From: a virus | Direction: 5' to 3' (one strand) | UHGV virus genome: UHGV-0187309 | Length of the DNA: 44,350 nt | In this document: piece by piece, positions 6,947-26,306 of the stretch | Layout: each line of letters begins with the position of its first letter | Position numbering within the stretch: position 1 is the first letter of the stretch | Notes under the pieces: model-generated | The model's input: only the letters and a program-made list of their open reading frames with translations | What the model was told of the DNA's origin: nothing | The model's database searches: none | Made by a program: the position numbers and the translations under genes

Positions 6947-7669
6947 ATGGAAAACGCAAATGTTCAGAATGCTGCCGCTATCACCGATAAGACCACCCTC
7001 GGCGAACTGCTTGCAATGCTTGACCTCGCTGATAAGGCAGGCAAGATGCCGACACCGAGAGAACTGTTTGAGACTGCCGGTTCGCCGATAGCCGATATGA
7101 ATGGCTGCACTCTCTTCAGCAACGGCTTCGCCATCTATCAGAATGTCACTGGGCGCACTGTTGTCTGGCTGCCGTACTGCAAGAGCTTCACCTATTACTT
7201 CGGCAAGCTCCGTGATTCCGAGAAAGACACGCTGACAGAGACCTATGAGCTGCCGGATGGATTTCTGGAAACACAGCCGTGGGTGATCGCAGTAACACTG
7301 ATCGGCGACCATCGTGTGGAGGCAAACAGCATGAACCGCACCGGCAGCCGCAAGGATACCACAGATTATGACAGCGCCGATAACGGCGATAAAGACGGTG
7401 ATGCAGAGGAGGCTTTGGCAGATCCGTATCGCAGGGCATTCAACTGGTATGACGGACGCATGGGCGAGAATCCGCAGGATGCCGTGGAGCGCAGAGAGAC
7501 ACGCGAGGAGATGCTTGCAGACATGACGGACAAGCAGCGTGAAGCCTTTATTATGTACTTCAGGGATGGTATGACGCAGGAAGAGATTGCTTCATATATA
7601 GGGGTAAGCCGTGATTCCATAAATGACAGGCTTGAAGGTGCTTTGAAAAAAGCAAAAAAATATTTTTAG
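6947..7669 (+). CDS. sigma-70 region-4-like HTH protein (possible phage sigma/transcription factor)
   Basis: Start at Met36 of the track ORF (AAAGGAA RBS). C-terminus TDKQREAFIMYFRDGMTQEEIASYIGVSRDSINDRLEGALKKAKK resembles sigma-70 region 4. N-terminal 190 aa unrecognised. Confidence 0.55.
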   Translation: MENANVQNAAAITDKTTLGELLAMLDLADKAGKMPTPRELFETAGSPIADMNGCTLFSNGFAIYQNVTGRTVVWLPYCKSFTYYFGKLRDSEKDTLTETYELPDGFLETQPWVIAVTLIGDHRVEANSMNRTGSRKDTTDYDSADNGDKDGDAEEALADPYRRAFNWYDGRMGENPQDAVERRETREEMLADMTDKQREAFIMYFRDGMTQEEIASYIGVSRDSINDRLEGALKKAKKYF

Positions 7670-7759
7670 GATACCCACAAAAAGACCTCTCCCACGACAG
7701 TATATGAGAGGGCTTGAAAAGAAACCAAACCGCAAGCGGCTGCAAAGCCCTCGCAGCCG
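7669..7759 (+). promoter_or_regulatory. copy 1 of a two-copy structured element (box + conserved-loop hairpin + second hairpin)
   Basis: GGATACCCACAAAA, then CCTCTC-ccacgacagtatat-GAGAGG, then CAAACC..AAGCGG and CGGCTGC/GCAGCCG (7737..7759). The first 44 nt are 40/44 identical to 21496..21539. Confidence 0.6.
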
Positions 7760-7806
7760 AACCATTATTACATCGGTCGAAAGACCTGAACAGAAAGGAA
7801 ATGCTT

Positions 7807-8169
7807 ATGCCTATGGAAAACAGAGTCCCGAAAAACCGCTACAACGGCGGTGCCGCAACCGATGCCGACAAGCAGGACAAGCCCGATGTGCTGAAGATGA
7901 TCGAAACGGCAATGGACAAGCGTGCGGCGGGCATCGCACAGACGGTCACGGATATGTTCCGTTTCATGTCGATGGCATCTGCCATGCTCCCGAATATGGA
8001 GATGGATGTCGGTGTGTTCCGTCTGAAGATCGACGATGACGGCATCTTTTTCGAGATCAACCATCCGTTCCGCAAGCGCAAGCAGCGTGATATCTCCAAT
8101 GACTGCTGTGCCGAGGAGCCGGACAACTATGATGATGACGAGGAGGGACTGATTTATGACGGAGACTGA
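7807..8169 (+). CDS. hypothetical protein (acidic C-terminus)
   Basis: ORF-track frame. ATG 7807 lies 6 nt after AAAGGAA; alternative ATGs at 7801 and 7813. Confidence 0.55.
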   Translation: MPMENRVPKNRYNGGAATDADKQDKPDVLKMIETAMDKRAAGIAQTVTDMFRFMSMASAMLPNMEMDVGVFRLKIDDDGIFFEINHPFRKRKQRDISNDCCAEEPDNYDDDEEGLIYDGD

Positions 8170-8650
8170 AAAGAAATTCCCTGTGCCGGGACCGCTTCCC
8201 GTAGACGCAAAGAAGCTGATCGATGGGCTTGGCACGATCTTCGGCGGCGTGATCCAGCTTCTGGCAGCAATGGAGCCGAACATGGCAAAGGAGCTGGCGG
8301 ACATGGCGATCAACGGTGTGCCAAAGGAGACTGCGCCGGAGGAAATCAATCCGGACGATTTCGAGGAGATCATCACCGCTGACGATCTGCCGTGGGATAC
8401 AGAGCCGGAGCAGCCCGAAGAGCCGAAACCTGCGGAAAAGCCCAAACCGAAGAAGGCGGCAAAGAGGGCGGAGCCTGCATCGGAGCTGACCGCTGATGAC
8501 CTCATCCGCGTGGTGACGCAGAAGATCAAGCAGAACCGTGCCAACAAGGACAAAGTGCTGGCGCTGCTGAAATCCTACGGTGCGGCAAAAGTCAGCGATA
8601 TACCTGCGGACAAGTACGAAGCGTTTCTCACTGACCTGTCGCAGCTCTGA
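8156..8650 (+). CDS. hypothetical protein (Pro/Glu/Lys-rich linker)
   Basis: 164 aa, GAGGAGGG RBS. Overlaps the upstream gene by 14 nt, consistent with translational coupling. Confidence 0.65.
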   Translation: MTETEKKFPVPGPLPVDAKKLIDGLGTIFGGVIQLLAAMEPNMAKELADMAINGVPKETAPEEINPDDFEEIITADDLPWDTEPEQPEEPKPAEKPKPKKAAKRAEPASELTADDLIRVVTQKIKQNRANKDKVLALLKSYGAAKVSDIPADKYEAFLTDLSQL

Positions 8651-8664
8651 TCGGAGGTGGCACG

Positions 8665-9912
8665 ATGCCGGATGTTCATGCACTTCTGAGTGCATCCAGT
8701 TCCAAGCAATGGCTTCACTGTCCGCCGTCCGTCCGCCTGCAGGAGAACTTTCCGAACGAGAGCTCCGTGTATGCCGCCGAGGGAACATTCGCTCATGAGG
8801 TCTGCGAGTACAAGGTCCGCAAGTATCTGAAGGAGCGTGTGAAACGTCCGCAGTCCGAGGAATATGACACCGAGGAAATCGAGCAGATCACAGATGTGTA
8901 TGCGGAGTTCGTGATCTCCATCATTGAGCAGATGAAGGAGAACGGCTGTGAGTCGCTTGCTTTTGTTGAGGAGCGTGTGGACTACAGCCACATTGCCCCT
9001 TCCGGCTTTGGCACGGCAGATATGCTCATCATCGGTAAGGACGAGCAGGGACGCGGAATCCTTCATGTATGCGATTTCAAGACGGGTGCAGGCGTGTTTG
9101 TGGATGCAGACCACAACAGCCAGATGATGCTCTATGCGATCGGAGCTTTAGCCGCCTACGGCTTTTTGTATGATATTGAGATCGTGCGTATGAGCATCAT
9201 TCAGCCTCGTCTGGATAATATCAGCACATTCGAGTGCAGCAGAGCCGAGCTTGAGGAATGGGGCGAGAGCATCAAGCCCATTGCGAAACTTGCCTACGAG
9301 GGCAAGGGCGAACAAAGCCCCGGCGACTGGTGTCGGTTCTGCCGTGCAAAGCCTGTTTGCAAAGCGTGTGCCAATGAAGCACTGGCACTCTGCCGTGAGG
9401 ATTTCCTTGACCTCGATGCCGGAGCATTCGATGATACTGCGGAGGAAAGCGATATGACCGCACCCTACGAAGCGGATATACAGACTGCCGTATTCAAGCA
9501 GCCGGGACTGATTCCTATCAGCGAACTTGCGGAGATCCTGCCGACTCTGAACCGCATCAGCTCTTGGATCGAGGCGGTATTCGCATTCGTATCCTCCGAG
9601 GCGATCAATCACGGTGTACCGATTCCCGGCTATAAGGTGGTCGAAGGGCGCAGCAAGCGTGTATTCACAGATACAAAAGCTGTGGTCGATACCGCTGTTC
9701 AGAACGGGTACACCGACCTTTACAAGCAGACGCTCATCACGCTGACGGAATTTGAAAAGATGATGGGCAAGAAAAAGTTCAACGAGCTGCTCGGTGAGTA
9801 TGTCGCCAAGCCACCCGGAAAGCTGGCACTTGTGCCGGAGAGCGATCCGAGAGAACCCGTTGATCTCACAACACCCGGTCAGGAATTTGAAGTTCTCTCT
9901 GATGATGAGTGA
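8665..9912 (+). CDS. DUF2800-type PD-(D/E)XK nuclease with Cys cluster
   Basis: N-terminus LSASSSKQWLHCPPSVRLQE...AAEGTFAHE. DFK core (HVCDFKTG). CRFCRAKPVCKAC cluster. Canonical position upstream of DUF2815 and the DNA polymerase. Confidence 0.8.
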   Translation: MPDVHALLSASSSKQWLHCPPSVRLQENFPNESSVYAAEGTFAHEVCEYKVRKYLKERVKRPQSEEYDTEEIEQITDVYAEFVISIIEQMKENGCESLAFVEERVDYSHIAPSGFGTADMLIIGKDEQGRGILHVCDFKTGAGVFVDADHNSQMMLYAIGALAAYGFLYDIEIVRMSIIQPRLDNISTFECSRAELEEWGESIKPIAKLAYEGKGEQSPGDWCRFCRAKPVCKACANEALALCREDFLDLDAGAFDDTAEESDMTAPYEADIQTAVFKQPGLIPISELAEILPTLNRISSWIEAVFAFVSSEAINHGVPIPGYKVVEGRSKRVFTDTKAVVDTAVQNGYTDLYKQTLITLTEFEKMMGKKKFNELLGEYVAKPPGKLALVPESDPREPVDLTTPGQEFEVLSDDE

Positions 9913-9985
9913 GGATCATACAATAATGCCGCAATTATTCTGTTTGGTGAATACGCAAAATTGAATGAAATATAGGAGGTATACT

Positions 9986-10561
9986 ATGGCAAACACAACA
10001 CCCGCGACTAAAGTGGTTATTCCCTGTCGCATTTCTTTTGCGAACATCTGGGAGCCAAAATCAATTAATGGCAGCGAAGAGAAGTATTCCGTTTCCCTAC
10101 TGATCCCGAAGGATGACAAGGCAACGCTCGCCAAGATCAAGAAGGCAATTGAGGCGGCAAAGGAAGCGGCGAAGGAGAAGAAGTGGGGCGGCAAGATCCC
10201 GCCGAACCTCAAGCTGCCGATGCATGACGGCGACATCGACCGTCCTGATGACGAGAACTATGCCGGTCACTTCTTCTTCAATGCCACGAGCAAGGATGCA
10301 CCGCAGATCGTTGACCGCCATGTGCAGCCGATTCTCGATCCGATGGAGTGCGGCAGCGGTGACTATTGCAATGTCAGCGTGAACTTCTACGGTTTTGCAG
10401 CATCCGGCAACAAGGGCATCGCAGCAGGACTCCAGAACATCCAGCTTGTCCGCCACGGTGAGCGTCTTGCGGGCAGACCGACCGCAGCATCCGACTTCGT
10501 TGAGGTCGAGGGCGATGACACGGATGATCTCGCAGACGATGATCTGGATTTCCTGAACTGA
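9986..10561 (+). CDS. DUF2815-type phage ssDNA-binding protein
   Basis: AGGAGG RBS. ATKVVIPCRISFANIWEPKS...EKYSVSLLIPKDDKATLAKIKKAIEAAKE. Acidic C-terminal tail DDLADDDLDFLN. Confidence 0.75.
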   Translation: MANTTPATKVVIPCRISFANIWEPKSINGSEEKYSVSLLIPKDDKATLAKIKKAIEAAKEAAKEKKWGGKIPPNLKLPMHDGDIDRPDDENYAGHFFFNATSKDAPQIVDRHVQPILDPMECGSGDYCNVSVNFYGFAASGNKGIAAGLQNIQLVRHGERLAGRPTAASDFVEVEGDDTDDLADDDLDFLN

Positions 10562-10601
10562 CGCATAAGGGAGGCTTGCCTCCCTGTACATACACAAACA
10601 G

Positions 10602-13487
10602 GTGGTGATTTTATTGAGCAGACGTGTACTTTCCATCGACTTAGAGACCTATTCGGATGTAGACCTCCCGAACTGCGGTGTGTACCGCTATGTTGAGGGA
10701 GATTTCCATATCCTGCTGTTCGCATATGCATTTGACGATGAGGAGACAAAATGCGTGGATATGGCCTGCGGGGAGCAGCTCCCGGCAGAGGTCGTGGATG
10801 CGCTGCAGGATGACAGTATTATCAAATCGGCATGGAACGCACAGTTTGAGCGTACCTGCCTTTCAAAATATCTCGGTACGCAGATTTCTCCGGACTCGTG
10901 GCAATGCACGATGGTATGGGCGGCATCGCTTTCACTTCCGCTGAAGCTGGCAACGGCTGCACAGGCACTGAAAACTGCACAGCAGAAGGACGCTGTCGGT
11001 GAGCGTCTTATCCGTTATTTCTCTCTGCCCTGTAAGCCCACCAAAGCAAACGGCGGCAGAACAAGAAATCTGCCGGAACACGCCCCCGAAGACTGGAAGC
11101 TGTTCAAAAGCTACTGCATACAGGACGTGGAAACCGAGCGGGATATCCGCCGCAGGCTTGAAAAGTTCCCCCTGCTCCCGCAGGAATGGGACTACTACCA
11201 CATGGATCAGCGGATCAATGATCGCGGTATCCTGATCGACAAAGAGCTTGTGCAGCAGGCTATTATCTGCAATATGGCAATGTCCGAAGAAATGACAAAA
11301 CGTGCATACGCTCTGACAGGACTTGAAAATCCGAATTCCGTATCACAGCTCAAGGGATGGCTTGAGGAGCGTGGCATTGAGGTGGATTCCCTCGGCAAAA
11401 AGAATGTCGCTTCTCTTATCACAGACCTCGACAGGCACAGCGCAGACGGTGAGGCTCTGGATATGATGAAGCTGCGGTTGCAGATGGCAAAGTCCTCTGT
11501 GAAAAAGTATCAGGCGGCAGAGAGATACATCTGTCAGGACGGCAGGGCGCACGGACTGTTTCAGTTTTCCGGAGCTCAGCGAACACAGCGCTGGTGTCTT
11601 ACCGGCGATCATGAAATACTGACAGATAAAGGCTGGCTCAGGCTTGATAATTGGCAGGGCGGTAAGATTGCTTGTTGGAATCCTAATCAGGAAATGGTCT
11701 CGTTCCAGAAAGCGAACGTATTGTGCTTTGAATATGACGGTCCTATCTACCGCTATGAGGACAAACGGATCGATCAGATCAGCACGCCGGATCACAAAAT
11801 GCGTGTAAAGAAACGGTATAACGGCGAGTGGACGGATGACACTGTTGGCAATATGGAAAAGTATCGTCCTTCTATTCCGTTTACCGGACGCAGACAAACG
11901 ATGCCCGGCTTGGAGCACGCAGAACTGAGGGTACTGGTGATGACGCAGGCTGACGGCAGCTATAAAGAAGATGGAATGCTCTGCTTCCATTTCAAGAAGA
12001 AAAGGAAAATAGAACGGTGCAAACATCTGCTCAGACAGGCGGGCATTTATTTCACAGTGAATGAATGCAGGACAGATGGAACAACGCAGATCAAGATTCC
12101 TTCCCGTGAGCAGCCGATGTATCTAAGAATGTTTCATAACAAGACATTTGGAATGTGGCTTCTCGATGAAAGCCCGGATGTTTTCTTTGATGAGCTTCGG
12201 TATTGGGACGGATCGCAAAGCGCCAAAAACAGTATCCAATATACCACAACGAACAAAGTGAATGCCGATATTGTTCAGGCTTTTGCTCATACAAGTGGTC
12301 GCTGTGCAAAAATGAAAACGGTCATCCGGGATAAAGAACACCCGAATTGGAGCGATGCATACTATCTCGATATATGGCTCACTCCGAAAAACTGTCATGA
12401 AATCAGAGTGAAGCCGACTATCTCGCAATTCAGCGGCAAAATATACTGTGCTGAAACCCCAACCGGATACTTCCTTGTAAGACGTAATGGTAAAGTGTGG
12501 GTAACAGGAAACAGCGGGCGCGGCATTCAATTACAGAACCTGCCGCAGAACCACATCTCTACCCTCGATGAAGCAAGAGAACTTGTCAAAATGGGCTGCT
12601 TTGACATGATCGAAGCACTGTACGGCAATACGCCGGATATCCTGTCACAGCTTATCCGCACGATGCTCATTCCGAAGGACGGCTGTGAATTTATCGTGGC
12701 AGACTTCTCCGCCATTGAAGCGAGAGTACTTGCGTGGCTTGCCGGAGAACAGTGGCGGCTCGATGCCTTCAAGCGTGGCGAGGATATTTACTGTGCATCC
12801 GCATCGCAAATGTTCGGTGTTCCGGTCGTGAAGCACGGCATCAATGGAGAACTGCGGCAGAAAGGCAAGGTCGCTGAGCTTGCCTGTGGTTACGGAGGTG
12901 GCAGCGGTGCGCTGATCTCTATGGGTGCGCTGGATATGGGACTGAAAGAGGATGAACTTCCCGACATCATTTCAAGCTGGCGCGATGCAAACCCGGAGAT
13001 CGTGAAATTCTGGTATGCCGTGGAGAAAGCGGCGATCGAAACAGTCAAGGACCACGCGGAAAGAACGGTCGGCAGGATCGGTTTTCAGTTCTCTGCAAAT
13101 ACACTGTGGATCGTGCTGCCGTCCGGGCGCAGACTTGCCTACATCAAGCCGAGGTTACAGCCGAACCGTTTCGGGCGTATGGCGCTGACCTTTGAAGGAC
13201 TCGGTGCAAACAACAAATGGACGCGCGGTGAGACATACAGCGGCAAGCTGACGGAGAACATCACACAGGCGACCGCCCGTGACCTGCTTGCAGAGGCAAT
13301 GCACCGAATGGAGCTTGCGGGACTTGACATAGTCGGTCATGTGCATGATGAGGTCATTTTGGAAGTGCCGAAAAGACAATATACGGTCGATGATGTGTGC
13401 AATATCATGAATCAAAATCCGAGATGGGCAGACGGTCTGCCCTTATCATCTGCCGGATATACCGGCAATTACTACTTCAAAGACTGA
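10602..13487 (+). CDS. family A DNA polymerase (3'-5' exo + pol) interrupted by an intein
   Basis: Exo motif LSIDLETYS. Pol motif A IVADFSAIEARVLAWLAG, motif B RQKGKVAELACGYGGG, motif C GHVHDEVILEV. The real start may be TTG 10614 (AGGTGGTGA RBS). Confidence 0.9.
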   Translation: MVILLSRRVLSIDLETYSDVDLPNCGVYRYVEGDFHILLFAYAFDDEETKCVDMACGEQLPAEVVDALQDDSIIKSAWNAQFERTCLSKYLGTQISPDSWQCTMVWAASLSLPLKLATAAQALKTAQQKDAVGERLIRYFSLPCKPTKANGGRTRNLPEHAPEDWKLFKSYCIQDVETERDIRRRLEKFPLLPQEWDYYHMDQRINDRGILIDKELVQQAIICNMAMSEEMTKRAYALTGLENPNSVSQLKGWLEERGIEVDSLGKKNVASLITDLDRHSADGEALDMMKLRLQMAKSSVKKYQAAERYICQDGRAHGLFQFSGAQRTQRWCLTGDHEILTDKGWLRLDNWQGGKIACWNPNQEMVSFQKANVLCFEYDGPIYRYEDKRIDQISTPDHKMRVKKRYNGEWTDDTVGNMEKYRPSIPFTGRRQTMPGLEHAELRVLVMTQADGSYKEDGMLCFHFKKKRKIERCKHLLRQAGIYFTVNECRTDGTTQIKIPSREQPMYLRMFHNKTFGMWLLDESPDVFFDELRYWDGSQSAKNSIQYTTTNKVNADIVQAFAHTSGRCAKMKTVIRDKEHPNWSDAYYLDIWLTPKNCHEIRVKPTISQFSGKIYCAETPTGYFLVRRNGKVWVTGNSGRGIQLQNLPQNHISTLDEARELVKMGCFDMIEALYGNTPDILSQLIRTMLIPKDGCEFIVADFSAIEARVLAWLAGEQWRLDAFKRGEDIYCASASQMFGVPVVKHGINGELRQKGKVAELACGYGGGSGALISMGALDMGLKEDELPDIISSWRDANPEIVKFWYAVEKAAIETVKDHAERTVGRIGFQFSANTLWIVLPSGRRLAYIKPRLQPNRFGRMALTFEGLGANNKWTRGETYSGKLTENITQATARDLLAEAMHRMELAGLDIVGHVHDEVILEVPKRQYTVDDVCNIMNQNPRWADGLPLSSAGYTGNYYFKD
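11595..12512 (+). mobile_element. 306-aa intein with LAGLIDADG-like homing endonuclease domain inside the DNA polymerase
   Basis: Extein junctions RTQRW|CLTGDHEILTDKGW ... GKVWVTGN|SGRGIQLQNLPQN. Block B STPDHKM. DOD-like motifs LRVLVMTQADGSY and FFDELRYWDGSQ. Removing it restores the contiguous RW-SGRGIQLQNLP polymerase motif. Confidence 0.8.
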
Positions 13488-13500
13488 GGAGGATATTCTT

Positions 13501-14550
13501 ATGAAACAGGGACGAGCATTACCGGAAGTGCTGACAGAGCTTCAGAGACAGAATGCAGCAAAGCAGGATTATATTGGCACGGCAGAGGCGTTCCGTCTGG
13601 ACGAGGACGGCAGCACCTTCCGGATCGGTGACGATCACAGCTTTGGTACCACACAGCTTTTCCATCGTCAGGTGGCATCGGCACTCGGCATTCCGGCGAA
13701 GTATTACGACATGATGCAGAAACAGAAGCCTGACCTTCTGGCAGACAATGTGAATGCATGGTTCAGTGACAAGGGCAGCAGCTACATGGTGCGTACCCTT
13801 GATTACGGCAGCGGACAGGTTGCGAGAGCCTTTCTGTCTGACCGTTACCGCCGTATCGATAACCTTGAAATTGCCTCGGCTGTTCTCCCGATTTTCGCCG
13901 GACAGGAAGGCATGGAGGTCATGAGCTGCGAGGTCACAGAGAATAAGCTGTATCTGAAGATCGTCAATCACCGTCTGGAAATGGCGTGTGTCGGTGACCG
14001 TGTGCAGGCAGGTGTCATCATCTCCAATTCGGAGGTTGGACTCGGTGCTGTGTCTGTTCAGCCGCTTGTCTATACACTTGCCTGCACCAACGGCATGGTG
14101 GTCAACAGTATGGGCGAACGCCGTACCCATGTCGGCAGGGCGGCGAAAGCACTGGAAGACAGCTTCAATATCTACACAAATGAAACCCTCGAAGCCGAAG
14201 ATAAGGCATTCATGCTGAAGCTCCGTGATACCACAATGGCAGCAATTGAAGAGGCTCGTTTCGCACAGATCATCGGTGTGTTGGAGCAGAGCCACGGCGC
14301 AAAGATCACAGGACGTGTGCAGGATGTCATCGAACTGACCGGCAAGGCGTATGACCTGAATCAGTCGGAACAGGACAGCATTCTGAACTATCTCATCAAG
14401 GGCGGCGATCTTTCCCTCTATGGTCTGAGCAATGCCATCACACGCGCTTCGCAGGATGTAGATTCCTACGACAGAGCCACTGCGTTAGAGGGCATCGGCT
14501 GGCAGGTGGCGACCATGCCTGCAAATCAGTGGAAGGAGATCAACGCATGA
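13501..14550 (+). CDS. DUF932-like phage/plasmid protein
   Basis: 349 aa, GAGGAGG RBS. IISNSEVGLGAVSVQPLVYTLACTNGMVV resembles the NSxxGxxA...CxNGM core of DUF932. Function unknown. Confidence 0.5.
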   Translation: MKQGRALPEVLTELQRQNAAKQDYIGTAEAFRLDEDGSTFRIGDDHSFGTTQLFHRQVASALGIPAKYYDMMQKQKPDLLADNVNAWFSDKGSSYMVRTLDYGSGQVARAFLSDRYRRIDNLEIASAVLPIFAGQEGMEVMSCEVTENKLYLKIVNHRLEMACVGDRVQAGVIISNSEVGLGAVSVQPLVYTLACTNGMVVNSMGERRTHVGRAAKALEDSFNIYTNETLEAEDKAFMLKLRDTTMAAIEEARFAQIIGVLEQSHGAKITGRVQDVIELTGKAYDLNQSEQDSILNYLIKGGDLSLYGLSNAITRASQDVDSYDRATALEGIGWQVATMPANQWKEINA

Positions 14551-14780
14551 GCAGAACCTGGAAAGACAGAAAAGGATATAAAACACGCAGAAAACGACAC
14601 GGATATCCTGTGCCGGAGATCTGCAATTACACACGCGGCAGCTATGAAGATTATGACCACAGCGATGAGGAACTGTATGTCGATGACCAGTGCTGCGAGA
14701 ACTGCCGCTTTTGCGGATGTTGCCGTCATACACCGTTCCCGTCGGGCTGGTGCGAATACTGGAAGGACGGCACACATTGA
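14547..14780 (+). CDS. small Cys-rich hypothetical protein
   Basis: ATG 14547 overlaps the upstream stop (ATGA); GGAAGGAG RBS. CCENCRFCGCCRH cluster. Confidence 0.5.
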   Translation: MSRTWKDRKGYKTRRKRHGYPVPEICNYTRGSYEDYDHSDEELYVDDQCCENCRFCGCCRHTPFPSGWCEYWKDGTH

Positions 14781-15217
14781 GAGAATATGTTGTCGAAAAC
14801 GAGTTTGTCAAGGCGGTAAAAGCGGCAGGCGGTGTGGCATACAAGCTGACATCGCAGACCGCAAACGGACTGCCGGACAGACTCGTTCTGTTCCCGGCGG
14901 CAAAGACGATTTTCGTGGAGCTGAAAGCACCGGGGAAAATGATGCGACCGTTGCAGCGTAAAAGACGGTATCAGCTTATGAAACTCGGCTTTCCGGTGCT
15001 GTGCATTGACAGGATGCCGCAGATCAAGCCGTTCATATCAGCAGCATTGTCATGGACACCCGGTGAGCCGTTCCCGGAAGGCATCGGTGCGAAGATACCC
15101 GATCTGGAAAGGGCAACGCTGCCGACGGATATGGATAACTTCGGGGAAACGCTTGAACCCATCGATCCAGACAATCTGATAGAGTTTTATGAAATAGAGG
15201 ACGGTGATGATGCATGA
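14777..15217 (+). CDS. VRR-NUC domain nuclease
   Basis: EFVKAVKAAGGVAYKLTSQTANGLPDRLVLFPAAKTIFVELKAPGKMMRPLQ. Start uncertain: TTG 14777 overlaps the previous stop, and the track ORF begins at 14690. Confidence 0.75.
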   Translation: MREYVVENEFVKAVKAAGGVAYKLTSQTANGLPDRLVLFPAAKTIFVELKAPGKMMRPLQRKRRYQLMKLGFPVLCIDRMPQIKPFISAALSWTPGEPFPEGIGAKIPDLERATLPTDMDNFGETLEPIDPDNLIEFYEIEDGDDA

Positions 15218-15711
15218 TTAACCCTAAACGCAGAGCTGTGAGAAAAAGCTGCTCATACTGCGGAACTGTCTTTACCTATGTCGGAAGTCATGGTACAAGA
15301 AATAAGCATTTTTTCTGTTCTCATGAATGCTATATTGCCTTTAAGACAAAGAAAGCAGAAGTGAAATGCGATTGGTGCGGCAAATCAATGCTGAAAAAAC
15401 GCTCTGATATATGGAGAACGGATCACAATTTCTGCTGCCCCGAATGCTGTTTACTGTATAGGCAAAAGCAAGGCGAAACTTCATGGAATCATCGTGTGAA
15501 TGGAATAACCGTACACAGGGGCATTTTGGAGAAGAAGCTCGGACGAGAACTGCGTGCGGATGAAGAAGTACACCTTATCGATGGTAACCATTTCAATAAT
15601 GATCCGGACAATCTCATCGCCCTTTCCAAATCGGAACACGCCAAAATTCATTCTTCTTGGAAAGCGAGGGACGAGTATGGAAAATACGTTAAAACGCAGT
15701 CAGATTCATGA
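15214..15711 (+). CDS. free-standing HNH homing-type endonuclease with N-terminal Cys-rich zinc-finger region
   Basis: HLIDGNHFNNDPDNLIALSKSEHAKIH. Multiple CxxC/CxxxC pairs N-terminally. Overlaps both neighbours (ATGA at 15214; 35 nt into the SNF2 gene). Confidence 0.8.
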   Translation: MINPKRRAVRKSCSYCGTVFTYVGSHGTRNKHFFCSHECYIAFKTKKAEVKCDWCGKSMLKKRSDIWRTDHNFCCPECCLLYRQKQGETSWNHRVNGITVHRGILEKKLGRELRADEEVHLIDGNHFNNDPDNLIALSKSEHAKIHSSWKARDEYGKYVKTQSDS

Positions 15712-17059
15712 ATACCAAAAATACTGTGTTGACTTTATTAAGTCTCATCCCGTATCAGCACTCTTTTTGGATTGCGGACTTGGAAAGACGATCATTTCAT
15801 TGACTGCAATATATGATCTAATGTTTGATGAGCTGAAGGTATCTAAAGTTCTTGTAATTGCCCCTCTAAGAGTGACAAATGTCTGGAAAGCGGAGGTTCA
15901 GAAATGGAGTCATCTGCAAGATGTTGATGTTGCGATAGTAGTCGGAACTGTAAAACAGCGGATTGCTGCGATTAACAGTAACGCTCTTGTTTACGCTGTC
16001 AACCGTGAAAATGTGAAGTGGCTCGTAGAGTATTACGAGAAGAACGGTCTTCGCTGGGATTACGATATGATCGTCATTGACGAGCTGAGTTCCTTCAAAA
16101 ACTACCAGTCACAGCGGTTCAAATGGTTGCGTAAGGTTCGGCCTTTCGTGAAGCGCTGGGTAGGATTGACAGGAACGCCGACTTCCAACGGTCTCATGGA
16201 CCTGTGGGCAGAGATCGGTATCCTTGACGGCGGTGAGCGGCTCGGACGGTTTATAGGCAGATTTCGTGAAAGCTATTTCAAGCCTGCGTCCATGAATCCG
16301 TCAACCGGTGTTGTTTTCAGCTACACCCCACGTCCCGTCGCAGAGGAGCAGATCTATAACAAAATCTCCGACATTACGATTTCCATGAAGGCACTGGATT
16401 ATCTGGATATGCCGGAATGTATCTTCGTCAATCATGAGGTCGAGATGAATGCAGCAGAGCGAAAACTATACGATCAGCTGAAACAGGATCTTATCATTCC
16501 GCTTGAGGACGGAGATATCGATGCTGCCAACGCTGCCTCTCTCTCCAACAAGCTGCTCCAGATGGCTAACGGCGCGGTCTATGACGAAAACAAGGAAGCC
16601 CGAATCATTCACAGCCGGAAACTGGAAATGCTGGAAGACCTGATCGAAGCCGCAAACGGACAGCCTGTTCTGGTCGGCTACTGGTTCAAGCATGACCGCA
16701 CTCGCATCATGGAGCATCTAACCGCCTGCGGTTACAGCCCTCGTGATATAAAGGATTCCGCCGACATCACAGACTGGAACGCCGGAAACATCCCGGTCGC
16801 TCTTATACACCCCGCTTCGGCAGGACACGGTCTGAACATTCAGTCCGGTGGCCATATCATGATCTGGTTCGGTCTGACATGGAGCTTAGAGCTTTATCAG
16901 CAGACAAATGCGCGTTTGTGGAGGCAGGGACAGAAGCACACTGTCACGATCCACCACATCGTAACAAAAGACAGTGTCGATGAGGATGTGCTTGCTGCTT
17001 TGGCCAATAAGGATGTAACACAGGAGAAATTGATCGCCGCTGTCAAGGCGAGATTATAG
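15677..17059 (+). CDS. SNF2/DEAD-like superfamily 2 helicase
   Basis: Start at Met42 of the track ORF (GAGGGA RBS). Motif I LDCGLGKT, motif II VIDELSSF, HPASAGHGLNIQ, motif VI QQTNARLWRQGQ. Confidence 0.88.
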   Translation: MENTLKRSQIHEYQKYCVDFIKSHPVSALFLDCGLGKTIISLTAIYDLMFDELKVSKVLVIAPLRVTNVWKAEVQKWSHLQDVDVAIVVGTVKQRIAAINSNALVYAVNRENVKWLVEYYEKNGLRWDYDMIVIDELSSFKNYQSQRFKWLRKVRPFVKRWVGLTGTPTSNGLMDLWAEIGILDGGERLGRFIGRFRESYFKPASMNPSTGVVFSYTPRPVAEEQIYNKISDITISMKALDYLDMPECIFVNHEVEMNAAERKLYDQLKQDLIIPLEDGDIDAANAASLSNKLLQMANGAVYDENKEARIIHSRKLEMLEDLIEAANGQPVLVGYWFKHDRTRIMEHLTACGYSPRDIKDSADITDWNAGNIPVALIHPASAGHGLNIQSGGHIMIWFGLTWSLELYQQTNARLWRQGQKHTVTIHHIVTKDSVDEDVLAALANKDVTQEKLIAAVKARL

Positions 17060-17081
17060 GATCATACTCTCCGTATGATCC
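17059..17081 (+). other. perfect 9-bp stem-loop directly after the SNF2 stop (no U-tract)
   Basis: GGATCATAC tctcc GTATGATCC. Confidence 0.4.
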
Positions 17082-17144
17082 GCACTGAAAAGACGACAAA
17101 GCGGCGACAAAACGGTTACACCGCACTCTATGGAGGTGAAAACT

Positions 17145-17648
17145 ATGGCGCGTAAGAACAAACGCCTGAAAACAGAATACCACAGAGGTCTCGGTTTTGA
17201 TCCGCGAAAGTATATGACTTCCTACTCCCACCAAACTCGCTGTGAATCAATTCCGACTCCCGACCGTGCTCCAAAGCGCGGCGATATCTGGTTTGCGCGG
17301 CTCGGCACACATCCGAATTCCAGTGTGCAGGGCGGCACCCGTCCCGTTATCATCATTTCTAACGACCTCGGCAACGAACACGCTGACACCGTCAATGTTG
17401 TGCCGATGACCAGACACCTGAAAAAGCCGGAGCTGCCTTGTCACACTCCGCTTTCTCCCGGCAGCATTACCGATAGCAGACAGCCGCTTGAACTGTCAAT
17501 GGTGCTGGCGGAGCAGCTCACAACTGTCAGCAAGAACGCACTTCGCTATTATGCAGGTCATATTTCCGATGACGAAGCTATGAACCGCATCGAAACCGCT
17601 GTTATTGCGCAGCTCAGTCTTGAAAGGAGATATTCCAAATGCCTGTGA
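17145..17648 (+). CDS. PemK/MazF-family endoribonuclease-like toxin with ~45-aa N-terminal extension
   Basis: GGAGGTG RBS before ATG 17145. PKRGDIWFARLG...GGTRPVIIISNDLGNEHADTVNVVPMT is the PemK/MazF core. No antitoxin-like ORF upstream. Confidence 0.72.
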   Translation: MARKNKRLKTEYHRGLGFDPRKYMTSYSHQTRCESIPTPDRAPKRGDIWFARLGTHPNSSVQGGTRPVIIISNDLGNEHADTVNVVPMTRHLKKPELPCHTPLSPGSITDSRQPLELSMVLAEQLTTVSKNALRYYAGHISDDEAMNRIETAVIAQLSLERRYSKCL

Positions 17649-20068
17649 ATTTTGTCAATATCCCAGATGTTCTGAAGCAGACCGCTTCTTTCTGTGTCTG
17701 GAAGCTGGAAAAGAGATCCGGCAGACCGACCAAAGTACCGTATAACCCTCGCACCGGTGCAATGGCGAGAACCAACGATCCGTCTACCTTTGCAGACTTC
17801 AATACAGCAATGAAATCCTATGCCATCGGCGGATGGGACGGTATCGGCTATCGTGTCAGCGAAGGCATCGGTGCAATCGACATCGACCACTGCATCCGTG
17901 AGGACGGCAGTCTCAATGATGTTGCAGCATCCATTCTCGGTATCTTCCCCGATGCGTACTTTGAGCGCAGCCCCTCTGGTACCGGCTTGCGCGGCTTTTT
18001 TCGCCTTTCTCCTGATTTCGCCTACGATAAGACTGTGTACTACATCAACAACCGAAAGCACGGTCTGGAGGTCTATCTTCCCGGTGTGACGAACCGCTTT
18101 GTGACTGTTACAGGAGATATGTTCCGCAATGGTGCAGTTACCCGAAATGACGGTTCCCTGCGCACACTACTTGATACCTTCATGAAGCGCAGCACCCGTG
18201 TATCTTCCAAGACTGTCGAGCCTGTGTCCTATCTCGATGATGACGGTGTTATCGCTCACGCATCGGCATCTGAATCCGGCGACAAGTTCAAAGCACTGTA
18301 TGCCGGTAACTGGGAGGAAGGCTACGATTCCCAGTCCGATGCAGATATGGCGCTTGTGTCTATCCTTGCATTCTGGTGCGGTAATGTCGAGGAGCAGATC
18401 GACCGTATCTTCCGAACTTCCGGTCTGATGCGTGATAAGTGGGATCGTATGACCGGAGACAGAACTTACGGACAGATCACGATCCGCAATGCTGTCGCTA
18501 CCAATTCCGCTGTCTATACACCGATTCAGGATTCTACGGCAGAAGATGACTTTGACGATATCGAGGGCGATGCGGAAAATGAGCAGCTTATGTTTGAGCC
18601 TGATCTCACCCATGTTTCCCTGACGCTGGAAGAAATGCAGCCGCACACGAATCCCCGCTATCAGCGTGACGAGATCGGCATCGGATATGCATTTGCGGAT
18701 TATTATAAGCCCATCGCTCGTTTTGACCGTGAGCGCGGCATCTGGTATGTCTTTGACGGGAAGGTGTGGCAGCCGGACGAGAATGCGCTTGCCGTGGCGG
18801 AGCTTGCAAAGCGTCTGGCAGACAGGCTGTATACCTTTGCCCTTCAGATCAAGGATGAGGACACACGCAACCGCTATATCAAGCGAGTGCAGAAGCTGCA
18901 AATGCGGAAGAACCGCCGCACCATGATCGAAGATGCGAAATCCGTGTATCCAGTGCCGCACGCTATCTTTGACCGCAATACCTACCTTTTCAACTGTCAG
19001 AACGGGACACTGAACCTCACCACAGGTGAATTCCGTCCGCACGATCCGGCAGACTTTCTCACCATGATGTCCGGTGTCACTTATGATCCGAACGCCACCT
19101 GTCCACGATGGGAGCAGTTCATTTCCGAAGTTATGTGTAATGATGCTGACCTCGCATTATACTTGCAAAAAGCCCTCGGATATGCGCTTACCGGCGACAC
19201 ATCACTGGAATGCCTGTTCATCCTCTACGGTGCAACATCCAGAAACGGCAAAGGCACCACAATGGAGACCTTTCTCAAAATCATGGGCGACTACGGCAAA
19301 ACCTCCAATCCGGAGATGCTGTCTACGAAATTCGGCAACACCAATGCTTCCGGACCGTCCGAAGAGATCGCCCGGCTTGCGGGTGTCCGTTTTGTCAATA
19401 TCTCCGAGCCGGAGAAGAAGATCACCTTCAATGCGGCACTGGTAAAGCGTATGACGGGTAATGATACACTGAATGCACGTTTCCTGCATGAGAATTCCTT
19501 CGACTTCCGACCGAATTTCAAGATCTTCATCAATACGAATTACAAACCGTCCGTTTCTGATATGACACTGTTTTACTCCAACCGTCTGAAGCTCATTCCG
19601 TTCAAACGCCATTTTGAGGAGCATGAGCAGGACAAAGGTCTGAAAGCATTTTTCAGTACGTATGTCTGCCTCTCTGCCATCTTCAACTGGTGCTATGAAG
19701 GATATAAGCGGTTCCGTTCCGAAGATCTGGAAGATCCGGCTGCTGTATCTCAAGCAACCAAGGAGTATCAGGAGGAGTCTGACCGTATCGGGCAGTTTGT
19801 GGATGCGTGGCTCGAAGAAGGCGAAGCATTTGAAGTCCGTACCTCTGCGGCATATAAGCTGTACGGTGAATGGTGCGATAAATATGGCTACCGCAAGGAA
19901 AACAGCACCAACTTCAATAACGCGATCCAGCGTTTCTTCCCCATCGTGCGTAAGCGCCCGAACGATACTAAGGGTGCGCAGAAAACAACGATGCTTGTGG
20001 GCTGTCGTTTTCTGGAGCATGAAAACGGCGAAGCTGACGAACCAGAGGAGTTTGCAGCTTTGGAGTAA
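17639..20068 (+). CDS. bifunctional prim-pol / D5_N / P4-type primase-helicase
   Basis: N-terminal prim-pol (FCVWKLEKRSGRPTKVPYNP...GAIDIDHC). C-terminal NTPase with Walker A YGATSRNGKGT. Starts 10 nt inside the MazF-like gene. Confidence 0.88.
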   Translation: MPVNFVNIPDVLKQTASFCVWKLEKRSGRPTKVPYNPRTGAMARTNDPSTFADFNTAMKSYAIGGWDGIGYRVSEGIGAIDIDHCIREDGSLNDVAASILGIFPDAYFERSPSGTGLRGFFRLSPDFAYDKTVYYINNRKHGLEVYLPGVTNRFVTVTGDMFRNGAVTRNDGSLRTLLDTFMKRSTRVSSKTVEPVSYLDDDGVIAHASASESGDKFKALYAGNWEEGYDSQSDADMALVSILAFWCGNVEEQIDRIFRTSGLMRDKWDRMTGDRTYGQITIRNAVATNSAVYTPIQDSTAEDDFDDIEGDAENEQLMFEPDLTHVSLTLEEMQPHTNPRYQRDEIGIGYAFADYYKPIARFDRERGIWYVFDGKVWQPDENALAVAELAKRLADRLYTFALQIKDEDTRNRYIKRVQKLQMRKNRRTMIEDAKSVYPVPHAIFDRNTYLFNCQNGTLNLTTGEFRPHDPADFLTMMSGVTYDPNATCPRWEQFISEVMCNDADLALYLQKALGYALTGDTSLECLFILYGATSRNGKGTTMETFLKIMGDYGKTSNPEMLSTKFGNTNASGPSEEIARLAGVRFVNISEPEKKITFNAALVKRMTGNDTLNARFLHENSFDFRPNFKIFINTNYKPSVSDMTLFYSNRLKLIPFKRHFEEHEQDKGLKAFFSTYVCLSAIFNWCYEGYKRFRSEDLEDPAAVSQATKEYQEESDRIGQFVDAWLEEGEAFEVRTSAAYKLYGEWCDKYGYRKENSTNFNNAIQRFFPIVRKRPNDTKGAQKTTMLVGCRFLEHENGEADEPEEFAALE

Positions 20069-20107
20069 AAGTAGACTTTTCTCCGTATTTACGCTGTTTT
20101 CCGCAGT

Positions 20108-20196
20108 TGGGGCAGCGTGGGGCAAGTTTTTTCGGTGGTTATTATTATTACTTCTCTTTATATATATTACTATTTTTACTTGCCCCTACTTGCCCC
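20108..20196. repeat. ori-like element: inverted pairs of TGGGGCA(AG) iterons flanking a 52-bp AT-rich core
   Basis: TGGGGCA 20108..20114 and TGGGGCAAG 20118..20126. CTTGCCCC 20179..20186 and 20189..20196. Core 20127..20178 is ttttttcggtggttattattattacttctctttatatatattactattttta. Confidence 0.35.
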
Positions 20197-20374
20197 AAAT
20201 AAATAAAAACAATAGAAAAGATAAGAAGAATAGAGGATTTTCACTGATTTGAACCATTACCCATTTTGCACTGTTTTGAACCTTGCCCGATGCTGTCACT
20301 GACAAAGAGTGTGTAAGCGACAAAGCGTGGCAAGGTCAAAATCCAATAAACAATCATACAGGAGGAACACGAAT

Positions 20375-21469
20375 ATGAGAATCATTACTTCAGAACAGGT
20401 ATCCGCAGGACATCCCGACAAGATCTGTGACCAAATCGCGGATGCCATCGTGACAGACTGCCTTCAGCATGACCGCAGCAGTCGTGTTGCGATAGAGTGT
20501 CTTTTCAAGAACCGCTGTCTTGTGATCGCCGGTGAGCTGACCAGTACCCATGAGCCGGACTACAAGGCTCTGGTGCAGCAGGTGTTCGACCGTATCAACA
20601 ACGGCGGAGCTGAGAACAGCGATGCGGGACTTGACTACAAGCTGGACTTCACCGCCGATGATCTGGACATTGCGATTCTGGTCGATCACCAGAGCAATGA
20701 CATTGCGCTCGGTGTGAATGTCGGCGGTGCAGGAGATCAGGGTATGATGTACGGCTATGCGACCAACGAAACGCCGGAGATGCTCCCGATCCCCTTCGTG
20801 CTGGCTACCAGATTTCTGGAACTGCTGAAAGCCTACCCCTGCCGTATGCTGAAAGCCGATGCAAAGGCACAGGTCAGCTATGACTATGACAGCGGTCGCA
20901 TTACCACCTTCCTCTGCTCGGTGCAGCATACACACGATGTGGATGTTGAGGACTTCAAGCCCATCATCGAAAAGCTGATGGTGAGAACGGCAACCGAATA
21001 CGGGCTGAATACAGACTTTGCAAAGCTCGTCAACCCGACCGGCAGATTTGTCATAGGCAGTTCCTTTGCGGACTGCGGCGTTACCGGACGCAAGCTCGCC
21101 TGCGATACCTATGGCGGTATCGGGCATATCGGCGGCGGTGCAATGTCCGGCAAAGATCCGTCTAAGGTTGACCGCAGCGGCGCATATGCAGCAAGAAAAA
21201 TCGCAAGGGATATCGTCAGCGCCGGATATTCAGACAAGGCAGAGGTGCAGATCGCATACGCCATCGGTGTGGCAGAGCCCGTATCCGTGTATGTAGAGAC
21301 TTTTGGCACGGAGCATCAGGATACGGAGTTCATCAACCAGTATGTTCGTGAGAATTATGACCTCACGCCGAGGGGAATCATCGAAGGGCTGCATCTGCTC
21401 GATGTGGACTATAACGCCATTTCCGCATACGGACACTTCGGAAAACAGAACCTTCCGTGGGAACTATAA
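20375..21469 (+). CDS. metK: S-adenosylmethionine synthetase
   Basis: Start at Met23 of the track ORF (AGGAGGA RBS). ITSEQVSAGHPDKICDQIADAI, GAGDQGMMYGYA, GGGAMSGKDPSKVDRSGAY. Confidence 0.92.
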   Translation: MRIITSEQVSAGHPDKICDQIADAIVTDCLQHDRSSRVAIECLFKNRCLVIAGELTSTHEPDYKALVQQVFDRINNGGAENSDAGLDYKLDFTADDLDIAILVDHQSNDIALGVNVGGAGDQGMMYGYATNETPEMLPIPFVLATRFLELLKAYPCRMLKADAKAQVSYDYDSGRITTFLCSVQHTHDVDVEDFKPIIEKLMVRTATEYGLNTDFAKLVNPTGRFVIGSSFADCGVTGRKLACDTYGGIGHIGGGAMSGKDPSKVDRSGAYAARKIARDIVSAGYSDKAEVQIAYAIGVAEPVSVYVETFGTEHQDTEFINQYVRENYDLTPRGIIEGLHLLDVDYNAISAYGHFGKQNLPWEL

Positions 21470-21495
21470 TAAATTTTTTGAAATTTTTTTTGATT

Positions 21496-21589
21496 GGATA
21501 CCCACAAAATGCCCTCTCCCACGACAGTATATGAGGGGCGTTGTTCAGACCGACCACAAACACACTACAAACCAAGCGGGACTGACCGC
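21496..21589 (+). promoter_or_regulatory. copy 2 of the two-copy structured element
   Basis: GGATACCCACAAAA, then CCTCTC-ccacgacagtatat-GAGGGG (U-A replaced by U.G), then CAAACC.AAGCGG and GCGG/CCGC (21576..21589). Confidence 0.6.
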
Positions 21590-21632
21590 CCCTATCACTA
21601 TGCAACACCACTGTGGAAAGGAGGCAGAGACA

Positions 21633-21992
21633 ATGCCAAGCAGACCAAAAACACCATGCAGACACCCCGGCTGTGCTGCGCTCGTACCTTATGGCACCAA
21701 GTATTGTGACAAGCACCGTTCTCTCCATCCGGAGGACACACGCTCCGCAGGCAGTCGAGGCTATGGCACCACATGGAACAAGACCCGCAAGCGTTACCTT
21801 GAGACGCATCCGCTGTGCGTGGAGTGCATGAAGCAAGGGCGCTATATCAAGGCGACCGATGTCGATCACATCATGCCGCACCGAGGAGACAATGTTCTCT
21901 TCTGGGATCAGAGCAACTGGCAGAGCCTCTGCCACCGACACCACAGCATCAAGACCCGAAATGAGGATCACACCCCCGAGTACAAGTACTAA
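21633..21992 (+). CDS. HNH endonuclease
   Basis: Start at the internal ATG with AAAGGAGG RBS. CRHPGC...YCDKH zinc motif. DVDHIMPHRGDNVLFWDQSNWQSLCHRHHSIKT. Confidence 0.85.
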   Translation: MPSRPKTPCRHPGCAALVPYGTKYCDKHRSLHPEDTRSAGSRGYGTTWNKTRKRYLETHPLCVECMKQGRYIKATDVDHIMPHRGDNVLFWDQSNWQSLCHRHHSIKTRNEDHTPEYKY

Positions 21993-22450
21993 ACGCAAGC
22001 CACACTCACTATCGTTGCAGTTCAGGCAGTCTCAGGGGTGTACCTATGGGCGGGGCTGGGGGCTGGGGTTGCCCGCCGGGGCGGGTTCACTTCTCTGTGT
22101 GAAAGCGAACACAAGACCGTCGGCCCCTCTCGTGTGAAAAAACGCGAATTTGCAAGGGCCCCGGTCATTTGGGACCCTGACAGAGATATATTAGCTGTAA
22201 ATGAAATACTGTGCAGAAAACAGAAAACGCAGATTTTTCGTGCTTTTCCATATGCTGCCGTAGGAAACTGCGGCGGCAGGATACATACAGAGTTTCGTTA
22301 CAAAATGCACTGTAAAACGGCGAATTTACGTCAAAAAGCGATAGAATTAGCACATTTTTAGCGCCAAACCGCATTTTACAGTTTTATTCTTGGCGGAGCC
22401 CGTGTGGATACCGAAAACCGCATAAAATCAGAAGTTTCGAGGTGAATCAG

Positions 22451-22756
22451 ATGACAGATTCTCAAAAATATCAAGTACGAATTATGCGGATGCAGGGCAT
22501 TGGATATAAGGCAATAGCAAGGTCGCTGGGCTTGAAAACCAATCAGGTGCAGCTCTTTTGCAAGGCTCACGGTCTTGCAGGAGACAATCATCTGGTCGAT
22601 GTCAACTATCAAATCTGGTGTCAGCAAAACAACCGCTGTCCGGTCTGCGGTGCAAAGGTCACCCAGCCGAGGACAGGACGGCGAAAACGCTTCTGTTCCG
22701 GACGGTGCAGAACAAGATATTATCGTGAAAAACTGGAGGAATCAAAATGCTTGTAA
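22451..22756 (+). CDS. small HTH (sigma-70 r4/resolvase-like) + C-terminal zinc-ribbon protein
   Basis: GAGGTG RBS. RIMRMQGIGYKAIARSLGLKTNQVQLFCKAHGL. CPVCGAKV...RFCSGRCRTRYY. Confidence 0.6.
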   Translation: MTDSQKYQVRIMRMQGIGYKAIARSLGLKTNQVQLFCKAHGLAGDNHLVDVNYQIWCQQNNRCPVCGAKVTQPRTGRRKRFCSGRCRTRYYREKLEESKCL

Positions 22757-22932
22757 CCGTTTTGTGCCTTACTTACATGATGATCATCATCCTGATCCAT
22801 GCGATCTGGATATCTTCGATCATCAAGCATGACGGGAAATGCCACTACAACGACTGCGGTCACTGTCCGTATGACGCCTGGTGTCCGATGCAGGAGGAAA
22901 AACATGACACTGACAGAGAACTTCATTCGTGA
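22747..22932 (+). CDS. small predicted membrane protein with Cys-rich tail
   Basis: GGAGGA RBS 6 nt upstream. Hydrophobic N-terminus LVTVLCLTYMMIIILIHAIWISSII, then CHYNDCGHCPYDAWC. Confidence 0.45.
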   Translation: MLVTVLCLTYMMIIILIHAIWISSIIKHDGKCHYNDCGHCPYDAWCPMQEEKHDTDRELHS

Positions 22933-26305: not shown

Positions 26306-26306
26306 G

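Follow-up and report, generated by a model that had tools for sequence, protein, structure and literature searches.

Phage-encoded sigma-like factors that work on promoters of their own are a known kind of system. Among alternative-sigma promoters, those of B. subtilis sigma-X and sigma-W, the middle promoters of SPO1 gp28 and those of PBSX Xpf are familiar examples, and the middle promoters of T4 join a MotA box at -30 to a host sigma-70 -10 element, with the participation of AsiA, in an arrangement known as 'sigma appropriation'. Here we analyse the UHGV virus genome UHGV-0187309 (44,350 nucleotides (nt) in its whole length, hereafter the window) and an element that it carries twice, once directly after a gene for a sigma-like protein (the factor) and once after metK. 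The original prediction, made from the letters alone, had taken this element for a structured, nut/put-like antitermination site, with a promoter recognised by sigma-like phage proteins as the alternative. As far as it concerns the protein encoded at 6947..7669, that alternative is strongly supported by the comparative evidence, in which a short box of the element tracks the recognition helix of the protein, and we consider it likely that both copies are factor-dependent middle promoters and not RNA antitermination hairpins.

The element, its box and the adjacent sigma-like protein

Related loci were collected by similarity to the factor protein, by exact look-up of the contigs of distant family members, and with the 17- or 19-mer of the element itself. 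With positions counted from the first C of CCACG (7692 in copy 1 and 21519 in copy 2), four parts are shared: the A/T tract (AAAAA..TTTTT), which spans roughly -46 to -26, the 14-bp box (-23 to -10), a 6-bp spacer and the core (-3 to +19). The tract keeps its position in almost every related element, the non-coding copy 2 among them, and the spacer (-9..-4) is variable, pyrimidine-rich and low in information. The 23-bp core CTCCCACGACAGTATATGAGRGG is nearly invariant across the family (consensus CTCCCACGACA(G/A)TATATGAG(A/G)GG), an invariance that is partly by construction, since many of the elements were found by way of the exact 17- or 19-mer. Box and core are two sequence blocks held at a fixed distance by a spacer of variable sequence, with a gap-free interval and no indel in 108/108 distinct elements. 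Every copy is intergenic, has the orientation of the genes and stands 64-137 nt upstream of a ribosome-binding site and start codon; the elements share the strand of the operons that they precede, with several copies per genome and one specificity among them. Neither copy in the window has a canonical sigma-70-type promoter, though the phage has perfect ones at 4098-4168.

In 11 phages that carry 2-4 copies, boxes differ at 0.25/11 nt within a phage and at 5.5/11 between phages, whereas the flanks (+23..+33) diverge equally in the two comparisons (6.9 within, 6.3 between). Since boxes are shared within a phage and differ between phages, and the flanks show no such contrast, a trans-acting, phage-specific reader of the box is required. 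Each factor protein was paired with the element directly 3' of its gene. Across 41 non-redundant pairs, box and recognition helix are correlated (Mantel r=0.57, p=1e-4; r=0.47 in an earlier set of 26 pairs), the partial correlation is still r=0.57 when the preceding 45 residues are controlled for, and these 45 residues themselves give r=0.04 against the box. Helices that differ at no more than 2/12 residues go with boxes that differ at 0.56/11 nt, and those that differ at 6 or more with boxes that differ at 6.8/11. We relied on the Mantel test and on the comparison of boxes within and between phages because the Rand index of single-linkage clustering, which chains the ATACnnnnAAAA box variants, is a poor summary (0.24-0.55).

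Helices and boxes correspond one-to-one, in at least 18 classes in all (examples in Table 1). The same helix in very different protein backgrounds goes with the same box (SRDSVNDRL with TACCCACAAA in the window, L015, L024 and L066), and close backgrounds with different helices have different boxes (the window versus L004). DQT(S/T)(V/I)RD is found with ACCCCTAAAA in L044, and the rule correctly predicted L073 and L074, which were fetched after it had been formed and combine DQTSVRDRL with ACCCCTAAAA. Judged from these sequence comparisons, the reader of the box is most likely the adjacent sigma-like protein.

Table 1. Recognition-helix variants in the factor family and the boxes that accompany them
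Helix	Box
SRDS(V/I)NDRL	TACCCACAAA
(A/S)KMSVNERL	ACCCCTTACAAA
TKQSVNERL	AACCCTGACTTT
NHRAVGFRL	ATACTACCAAAA
SQ(R/K)(A/G)V(N/D)YRL	ATACTTCT(A/G)AAA
DQT(T/S)(I/V)RD(H/R)L	ACCCCTAAAA
SRRTLREHL	GACCCGCCATTT
(S/T)QVGVKHHL	ATAGTTATATTT
ARTT(V/I)(I/M)H(H/R)L	ATACGG(A/T)CAAAA
SRDSINDRLEG (window)	GGATACCCACAAAA

The factor consists of an alpha/beta N-terminal domain (residues ~10-128), a linker and a sigma-70 region-4 helix-turn-helix (~172-240) with its recognition helix at ~220-232, region 4 being the only recognisable domain. The most variable residues of the family (216-217, 221-223, 226-227 and 230-231) fall in the helix-turn-helix, and hhalign places them on the region-4 recognition helix of E. 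coli sigma-E. Structure prediction with a deeper alignment reached a predicted local distance difference test score (pLDDT) of 76, against 47 with a shallow one; in the AF2 model the N-terminal domain contains beta strands and has no structural match. NCBIfam gave a weak match to its 'positive control sigma-like factor' model, the family comprises ~450 clusters at 50% identity, and deposited phage genomes held no full-length homologue. A second protein had been put forward as sigma-70 region-4-like (22442/22451..22756), and this assignment did not hold up: it has no significant sigma match, only weak matches to YacG/zinc-ribbon and HTH_38.

The related phages have Ruminococcus flavefaciens and further Oscillospiraceae as hosts, for the most part metagenome-assembled genomes from rumen and gut. 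One related prophage, with the element at position 8050 of L047 (contig NZ_ATAX01000017.1), belongs to Ruminococcus flavefaciens 007c. Among the genome loci found by protein similarity alone, the core (at up to 2 mismatches) lies directly after the factor gene in 16 of 21, the remaining 5 being cut off or without the full gene, and throughout the unbiased sets it is directly 3' of the factor gene wherever the locus keeps the 3' end of that gene. All IMG/VR relatives at 70-78% protein identity carry the core, it is unchanged in relatives ~55% identical to the window protein, and it is still present in members from the distant-homologue search (L068-L070 and L073, for example). Three other distant members are changed in different halves of the core: L071 keeps CTC..TATA..AGAGG and has lost CCACGACAG, L072 keeps TTCCCACGACAG and has lost TATAT, and L074 keeps CCACGACA. 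The gene order, from factor gene through element and small genes to replication module, is conserved throughout, distant relatives included, and the metK-element arrangement recurs.

Some loci among the relatives are of interest in their own right. L071 has two tandem sigma-like paralogues (7841-9660), the second of them followed by an element with an altered core (CTCGAAATGCTATATAGTAGAGG), which may be a co-change with the conserved half of the protein, of which it is a single example. In L070 the element is tandemly duplicated (at 10904 and 11169, 265 nt apart) with the same box, and on the 20-kb contig of L024/L035 it is present four times. The metagenomic contig L031 has a core (element at 4040-4105) with wholly unrelated upstream sequence, neither A/T tract nor box, and this may be a recombination junction or an assembly chimera.

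Within the window, a repeat search returned the pair as family D13 (7669-7716 versus 21496-21543, 90% identity over 48 nt), and direct reading bore out the 40/44 identity claimed for the first 44 nt as well as both starting points, copy 1 beginning on the G of the TAG stop of the open reading frame (ORF) 6842/6947..7669 and copy 2 lying 27 nt past the end of the metK ORF (21469). The repeat had been described as a structured element of about 90 nt; the repetition and its start coordinates stand, but the similarity stops ~48 nt in and the copies cannot be aligned beyond. CAAACC..AAGCGG is indeed found in both, but at different offsets (56 versus 71 nt from the element start). The repeat is beyond chance, because by chance the window would contain 0.03 matches to the 17-mer CCACGACAGTATATGAG at up to 3 mismatches, whereas it has two exact ones and one with 3 mismatches, and the 14-mer box at up to 2 mismatches is found 2 times against 0.16 expected. 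Both copies are on the plus strand, upstream of co-directional gene blocks, as had been stated, and there is no further full copy in the window: at up to 7 mismatches to the 23-nt core, other matches are at chance level only. The match with 3 mismatches to the 17-mer core (17202-17218, CCGCGAAAGTATATGAC) was considered as a third copy and judged chance or non-functional, because it lies within an ORF starting at 17146 and has no box upstream; the same 17 bases are also present in L001.

RNA structure around the element

The invariant-loop hairpin of the original prediction is not a conserved structure. This hairpin 1 (CCTCTC, a 14-nt loop and GAGRGG) is foldable in the window, where it is thermodynamically unremarkable (-8.9 and -10.5 kcal/mol, z about -1.5). 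Over 31 distinct elements, 84.9% of the cells are paired against 84.0% in column-preserving shuffles, with 1 double-sided change against 1.2 expected; over 108 distinct elements, all six pairs are kept in only 52, and the paired fraction is 0.864 against 0.855 with shuffled partners. The 3' arm GAGRGG and the inner CTC are kept as sequence across relatives, and the outer 5' arm varies freely (ACGCTC, CTACTC, CGGCTC, CTGCTC, GCATTC, TCACTC, ACGATC), with uncompensated transversions that break the pairing. The 'second hairpins' turned out to be features of the 5' untranslated region that are unrelated in sequence and position and not homologous between the copies, and the Rfam searches (gathering threshold on the whole window, E-value mode on 6250-7850) gave nothing relevant. 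There is no conserved boxA-like motif either, the upstream 14-nt box being the very part that differs most between phages, nor are there two conserved stem-loops of the put type. Since hairpin 1 is a non-conserved structure, the nut/put reading lacks its defining feature; the conservation follows a DNA logic, in that the spacing is fixed and the box varies together with a helix-turn-helix.

The 3' arm GAGRGG pairs better with a co-varying partner downstream than with the 5' arm of hairpin 1. When it is paired with the downstream region of its own element, the mean energy is -11.8 kcal/mol, compared with -9.9 for the regions of other elements (permutation p=5e-5, 32 non-redundant elements); GAGRGG is paired in 22/32 minimum-free-energy (MFE) folds of RNAs that begin at +14, compared with 33% when the downstream sequence is shuffled, and a scan of start offsets gives a sharp peak at +14, the 5' edge of the stem. 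The duplex has -15.8 kcal/mol in copy 1, where the preferred partner of 7708-7715 is the loop of the supposed second hairpin (7745-7752); it has -23 kcal/mol in L016, L028 and L035 (GAGGGGAGTTGT with ACAACTCCCCTC) and, in the copy-2 type of pairing (GAGGGGCG with CGCCCCT), ~-16 kcal/mol in the close copy-2 relatives L001 and L020. Because the 5' edge of the stem is at a fixed place just past the conserved DNA block, a putative start can be set near 7706-7709 and 21533-21536, and the GAGRGG stem suggests a 5'-terminal stabilising stem-loop. With such a start, the box would lie at about -38 to -24 and the A/T tract at the position of an UP element, and either GACAGT (+4..+9) or CGAC (+3..+6), the latter known as the sigma-X-type -10 motif, would fall in the -10 region.

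A further small tetraloop hairpin (7775-7786) closely precedes the ribosome-binding site of the gene that comes first after copy 1. It reads GGTC-GAAA-GACC in the window and GGCC-GCAA-GGCC or GGTC-TCAA-GACC in relatives (L004, L012 and others), its stem being kept through compensatory changes.

The promoter reading and its rivals

According to the reading that we favour, host RNA polymerase would use each copy only together with the 6947-7669 protein, whose sigma region-4 helix-turn-helix would bind the box as a -35-like element. The invariant core would supply the -10, melting and start region and would be read by an invariant partner, either the conserved N-terminal domain of the protein or the polymerase itself; transcription would start in GAGRGG, at the positions given above, and the first RNA bases would fold into the 5'-terminal stem-loop. 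The two promoters would switch on, as a middle class, the replication block (7.8-20 kb) and the nucleotide-metabolism/methylase block (21.6-31 kb), which would make the factor gene an early gene. Because region 2 is undetected, the factor is perhaps not a true, canonical sigma; it could be a sigma of an unusual sort, or else an activator from which the host holoenzyme gains its -35 recognition. More tentatively, it could represent a new kind of promoter-specificity factor, with sigma region 4 fused to an alpha/beta domain that is not sigma region 2, the conserved half reading the core directly or via the polymerase and the hypervariable helix reading an interchangeable box.

Several points weigh against the promoter reading. 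Binding of the protein to the box, promoter activity and the start site are what we infer from sequences, and the co-variation proves a specific relationship between protein and box, not activation. Many elements were retrieved by the exact 17- or 19-mer, and only the protein-similarity loci are unbiased. The near-invariant core, with its 23 bp, exceeds the usual -10 region in length, and its register against a -10 hexamer is uncertain between the candidates GACAGT and CGAC. In the factor, Pfam, NCBIfam, PDB profile search, hhalign and fold search detected no sigma region 2, and the model of the N-terminal domain is of moderate confidence (pLDDT ~80-89 locally, predicted template-modelling score 0.47).

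The same protein might act on the same DNA in other ways. It could, like Q, be loaded at the box as an antiterminator, joining an initiating or paused polymerase at the core and rendering it resistant to terminators, so that the element would be promoter and engagement site at once, like lambda pR'/qut. In favour of this, the gene of the DNA-binding factor immediately precedes the site, as in the case of Q and pR', the phage-specific box is matched to the protein, the long invariant stretch around the putative start could be a pause or engagement signal, and there are terminator-like hairpins inside and after the first block (19369-19385 and 20088-20121). We nevertheless hold this to be unlikely, as the only recognisable domain of the factor is sigma region 4 and not a Q fold, the genes behind the 2-4 copies per phage are early/middle and not late ones, the box is not flanked by canonical hexamers of a host promoter, and strong terminators are few in the blocks. 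The co-variation, which shows specific recognition only, and the place of copy 1 at the entrance of the replication module would equally suit a site that is no promoter at all, be it an operator or roadblock, an origin of replication or an architectural site of some other sort. Each copy is single, however, with no iteron array; the orientation is strictly that of the genes, and each site lies 64-137 nt ahead of the operon's first gene; copy 2 comes after metK, a long way from the genes for replication; A/T tract, box, fixed spacer and core are arranged as in a promoter; and a 5' stem starts just where the core ends, all of which makes a non-promoter site quite unlikely.

A nut/put-like RNA element, whose transcribed box and hairpin or hairpins would modify the polymerase for processive antitermination, accounts for two copies per genome upstream of long operons, its hairpin can form in both window copies, and there is no terminator between the element and the gene before it, which means that read-through RNA would contain the element. 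Yet the covariation of the hairpin stays at the shuffled level in both element sets, its 3' arm is kept as sequence and prefers the downstream partner, the transversions in its 5' arm go uncompensated, its second hairpin is not homologous between the copies, Rfam gives no match, and the box is unstructured and follows a DNA-binding helix. On these comparative data the nut/put reading is largely refuted, and we regard it as very improbable.

Genome context and comparison with known systems

The window is a temperate phage or prophage of Firmicutes type. Its left end has a minus-strand integrase, divergent promoters (4098-4168), an M78-peptidase/HTH gene and terminators (6312-6381), followed by a 640-nt non-coding leader, the sigma-like gene, copy 1, the replication module, metK and copy 2; after copy 2 come an HNH endonuclease, NrdD, two DNA methylases, a repeat-rich region (32-39.5 kb), terS and terL. 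The terminator claimed before terS (39838-39866) is plausible by eye; the terminator scan did not report it. Positions of the factor gene, of the parts of both copies and of the downstream blocks are collected in Table 2.

Table 2. Coordinates of the factor gene, the two element copies and the gene blocks behind them
Feature	Position	Strand	Remark
Sigma-like factor gene	6947..7669	+	240 amino acids from ATG at 6947
Copy 1 A/T tract AAAAAAGCAAAAAAATATTTTT	7646..7666	+	UP-element-like; overlaps last codons of factor gene
Copy 1 phage-specific box GGATACCCACAAAA	7669..7682	+	read as putative -35-like element
Copy 1 core CTCCCACGACAGTATATGAGAGG	7689..7711	+	read as putative -10 / start-site region
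Copy 1 predicted 5'-terminal stem	7708..7752	+	GAGGGCTT (7708-7715) paired with AAGCCCTC (7745-7752), also in MFE fold from +14 onward
First gene after copy 1	7813-8169		
Block downstream of copy 1	7813..20068	+	small ORFs, DUF2800 nuclease, Enc34-type single-stranded DNA-binding protein, family-A DNA polymerase, DUF932, SNF2 helicase, D5-type primase
Copy 2 A/T tract TAAATTTTTTGAAATTTTTTTTGA	21470..21493	+	non-coding, directly past metK stop
Copy 2 box GGATACCCACAAAA	21496..21509	+	identical to copy 1 box
Copy 2 core CTCCCACGACAGTATATGAGGGG	21516..21538	+	putative start near 21533-21536
Copy 2 predicted 5'-terminal stem	21534..21593	+	AGGGGCG (21534-21540) paired with CGCCCCT (21587-21593), MFE fold
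First gene after copy 2	21633-21992		
Block downstream of copy 2	21633..31145	+	HNH endonuclease, small ORFs, anaerobic ribonucleotide reductase NrdD, ParB-N6/N4 methylase, C5 methylase

Other features of the window were recorded in passing. The divergent promoters at 4098-4168 are near-perfect sigma-70-type promoters (minus TTGACA-17-TGnTATAAT, plus TTGCAA-17-TATAAT) and probably form the lysis/lysogeny switch; they show that the host uses canonical hexamers, unlike the element. The conserved non-coding leader upstream of the sigma-like gene (6585-6946) contains a long hairpin, GCCGGATGCATACGG...CCGTATGCATCCGGC, followed by TATTTTT (6597-6722), whose inner stem has compensatory changes across 12 relatives, and two islands (6753-6804 and 6903-6942) with 90-98% identity even in distant relatives; it has no Rfam match and looks like a structured attenuator or small RNA controlling the factor gene. 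Between 32000 and 39500 there are several other repeat families of 3-5 copies each, each upstream of small ORFs, for example GACGGTAATATGTGAC..ACAACGGAAGGGC(N4-6)GCCC and sigma-70-type promoters of the form CGCTTGATA-N17-TATACT at 34638, 38633 and 39428, and these repeats are a second, different family of promoter-plus-leader cassettes before terS. The large terminase (40371-43037) has a LAGLIDADG domain at residues ~303-369, upstream of the ATPase domain, likely an intein or homing endonuclease insertion, and the ORF of the family-A DNA polymerase (10602-13487), of 961 amino acids in the window and 963 in L069 against 650-705 in most other relatives, may carry an insertion or extra domain.

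If both copies are indeed factor-dependent middle promoters, they provide the first regulatory map for widespread temperate phages of rumen and gut Ruminococcus/Oscillospiraceae, in which an early factor gene would be followed by two to four matched middle promoters. The one-to-one match of helices and boxes is a natural dataset on how sigma region 4 reads DNA, and a possible source of orthogonal promoter/factor pairs for the engineering of anaerobic Firmicutes. Should the factor also prove to be of a new kind, the family would be a natural set of at least 18 orthogonal pairs that insulate the middle transcription of each phage from that of co-resident relatives. The promoter reading also raises the mechanistic question of how region 4 and such an N-terminal domain would direct initiation at a conserved core of 23 bp.

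How, then, does this locus compare with the systems that resemble it? A search of the literature on the motif and on Ruminococcus phage sigma factors found nothing relevant. (i) As in the promoters of alternative sigmas, whether of the extracytoplasmic function (ECF)/group-4 type or phage-encoded, the site has two parts at fixed spacing, with the upstream part putatively read by region 4, and the factor gene would be early, with the next temporal class as its targets. In contrast to those systems, the factor is without a detectable region 2 and its N-terminal alpha/beta half is without a structural match, the downstream conserved part, at 23 bp, is much longer than a -10 motif, and a single family of proteins is accompanied by -35-like boxes of at least 18 different specificities. 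(ii) As in the middle promoters of T4, an early phage protein would recognise the -35 region, and region 2 of the host sigma could read the downstream element; however, the DNA-binding domain of MotA does not have the sigma-4 fold, the downstream element here is not a host-type TATAAT, and no AsiA-like partner was identified. (iii) With lambda nutL/nutR and HK022 putL/putR, the element shares two same-strand copies upstream of long operons and a conserved segment with a possible hairpin, but here the RNA structures that define those sites fail the covariation test, and what confers specificity is a box that has no structure and follows a DNA-binding helix. (iv) Lambda Q and its qut site at pR' offer the parallel of a regulator gene directly upstream of a DNA site, with protein and site specificity matched between phages; they differ in that the present element has multiple copies upstream of replication and metabolism genes, a regulator with a sigma-4 domain, and no host-type promoter. 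(v) Promoters of the T7/SP6 type resemble the element in their ~23 near-invariant bp, which end in TATA followed by a purine-rich start, and in the stem-loop at the 5' end of the transcript, and GACAGTATATGAGAG (7696-7710 / 21523-21537) matches the SP6 promoter (GACACTATAGAAGAG) at 12/15 positions. This likeness is probably coincidence, because such promoters go with a cognate single-subunit RNA polymerase, and the large ORFs of the window that were scanned gave no match to any RNA polymerase family; moreover, a phage-specific upstream box matched to a sigma-4 helix has no counterpart in T7-type promoters. Taken together, and although a phage sigma-like factor with promoters of its own is nothing new, what is unusual here is the combination of a region-4-only factor whose N-terminal domain matches no known structure, a 23-bp near-invariant core and a diversified, matched set of -35-like boxes.

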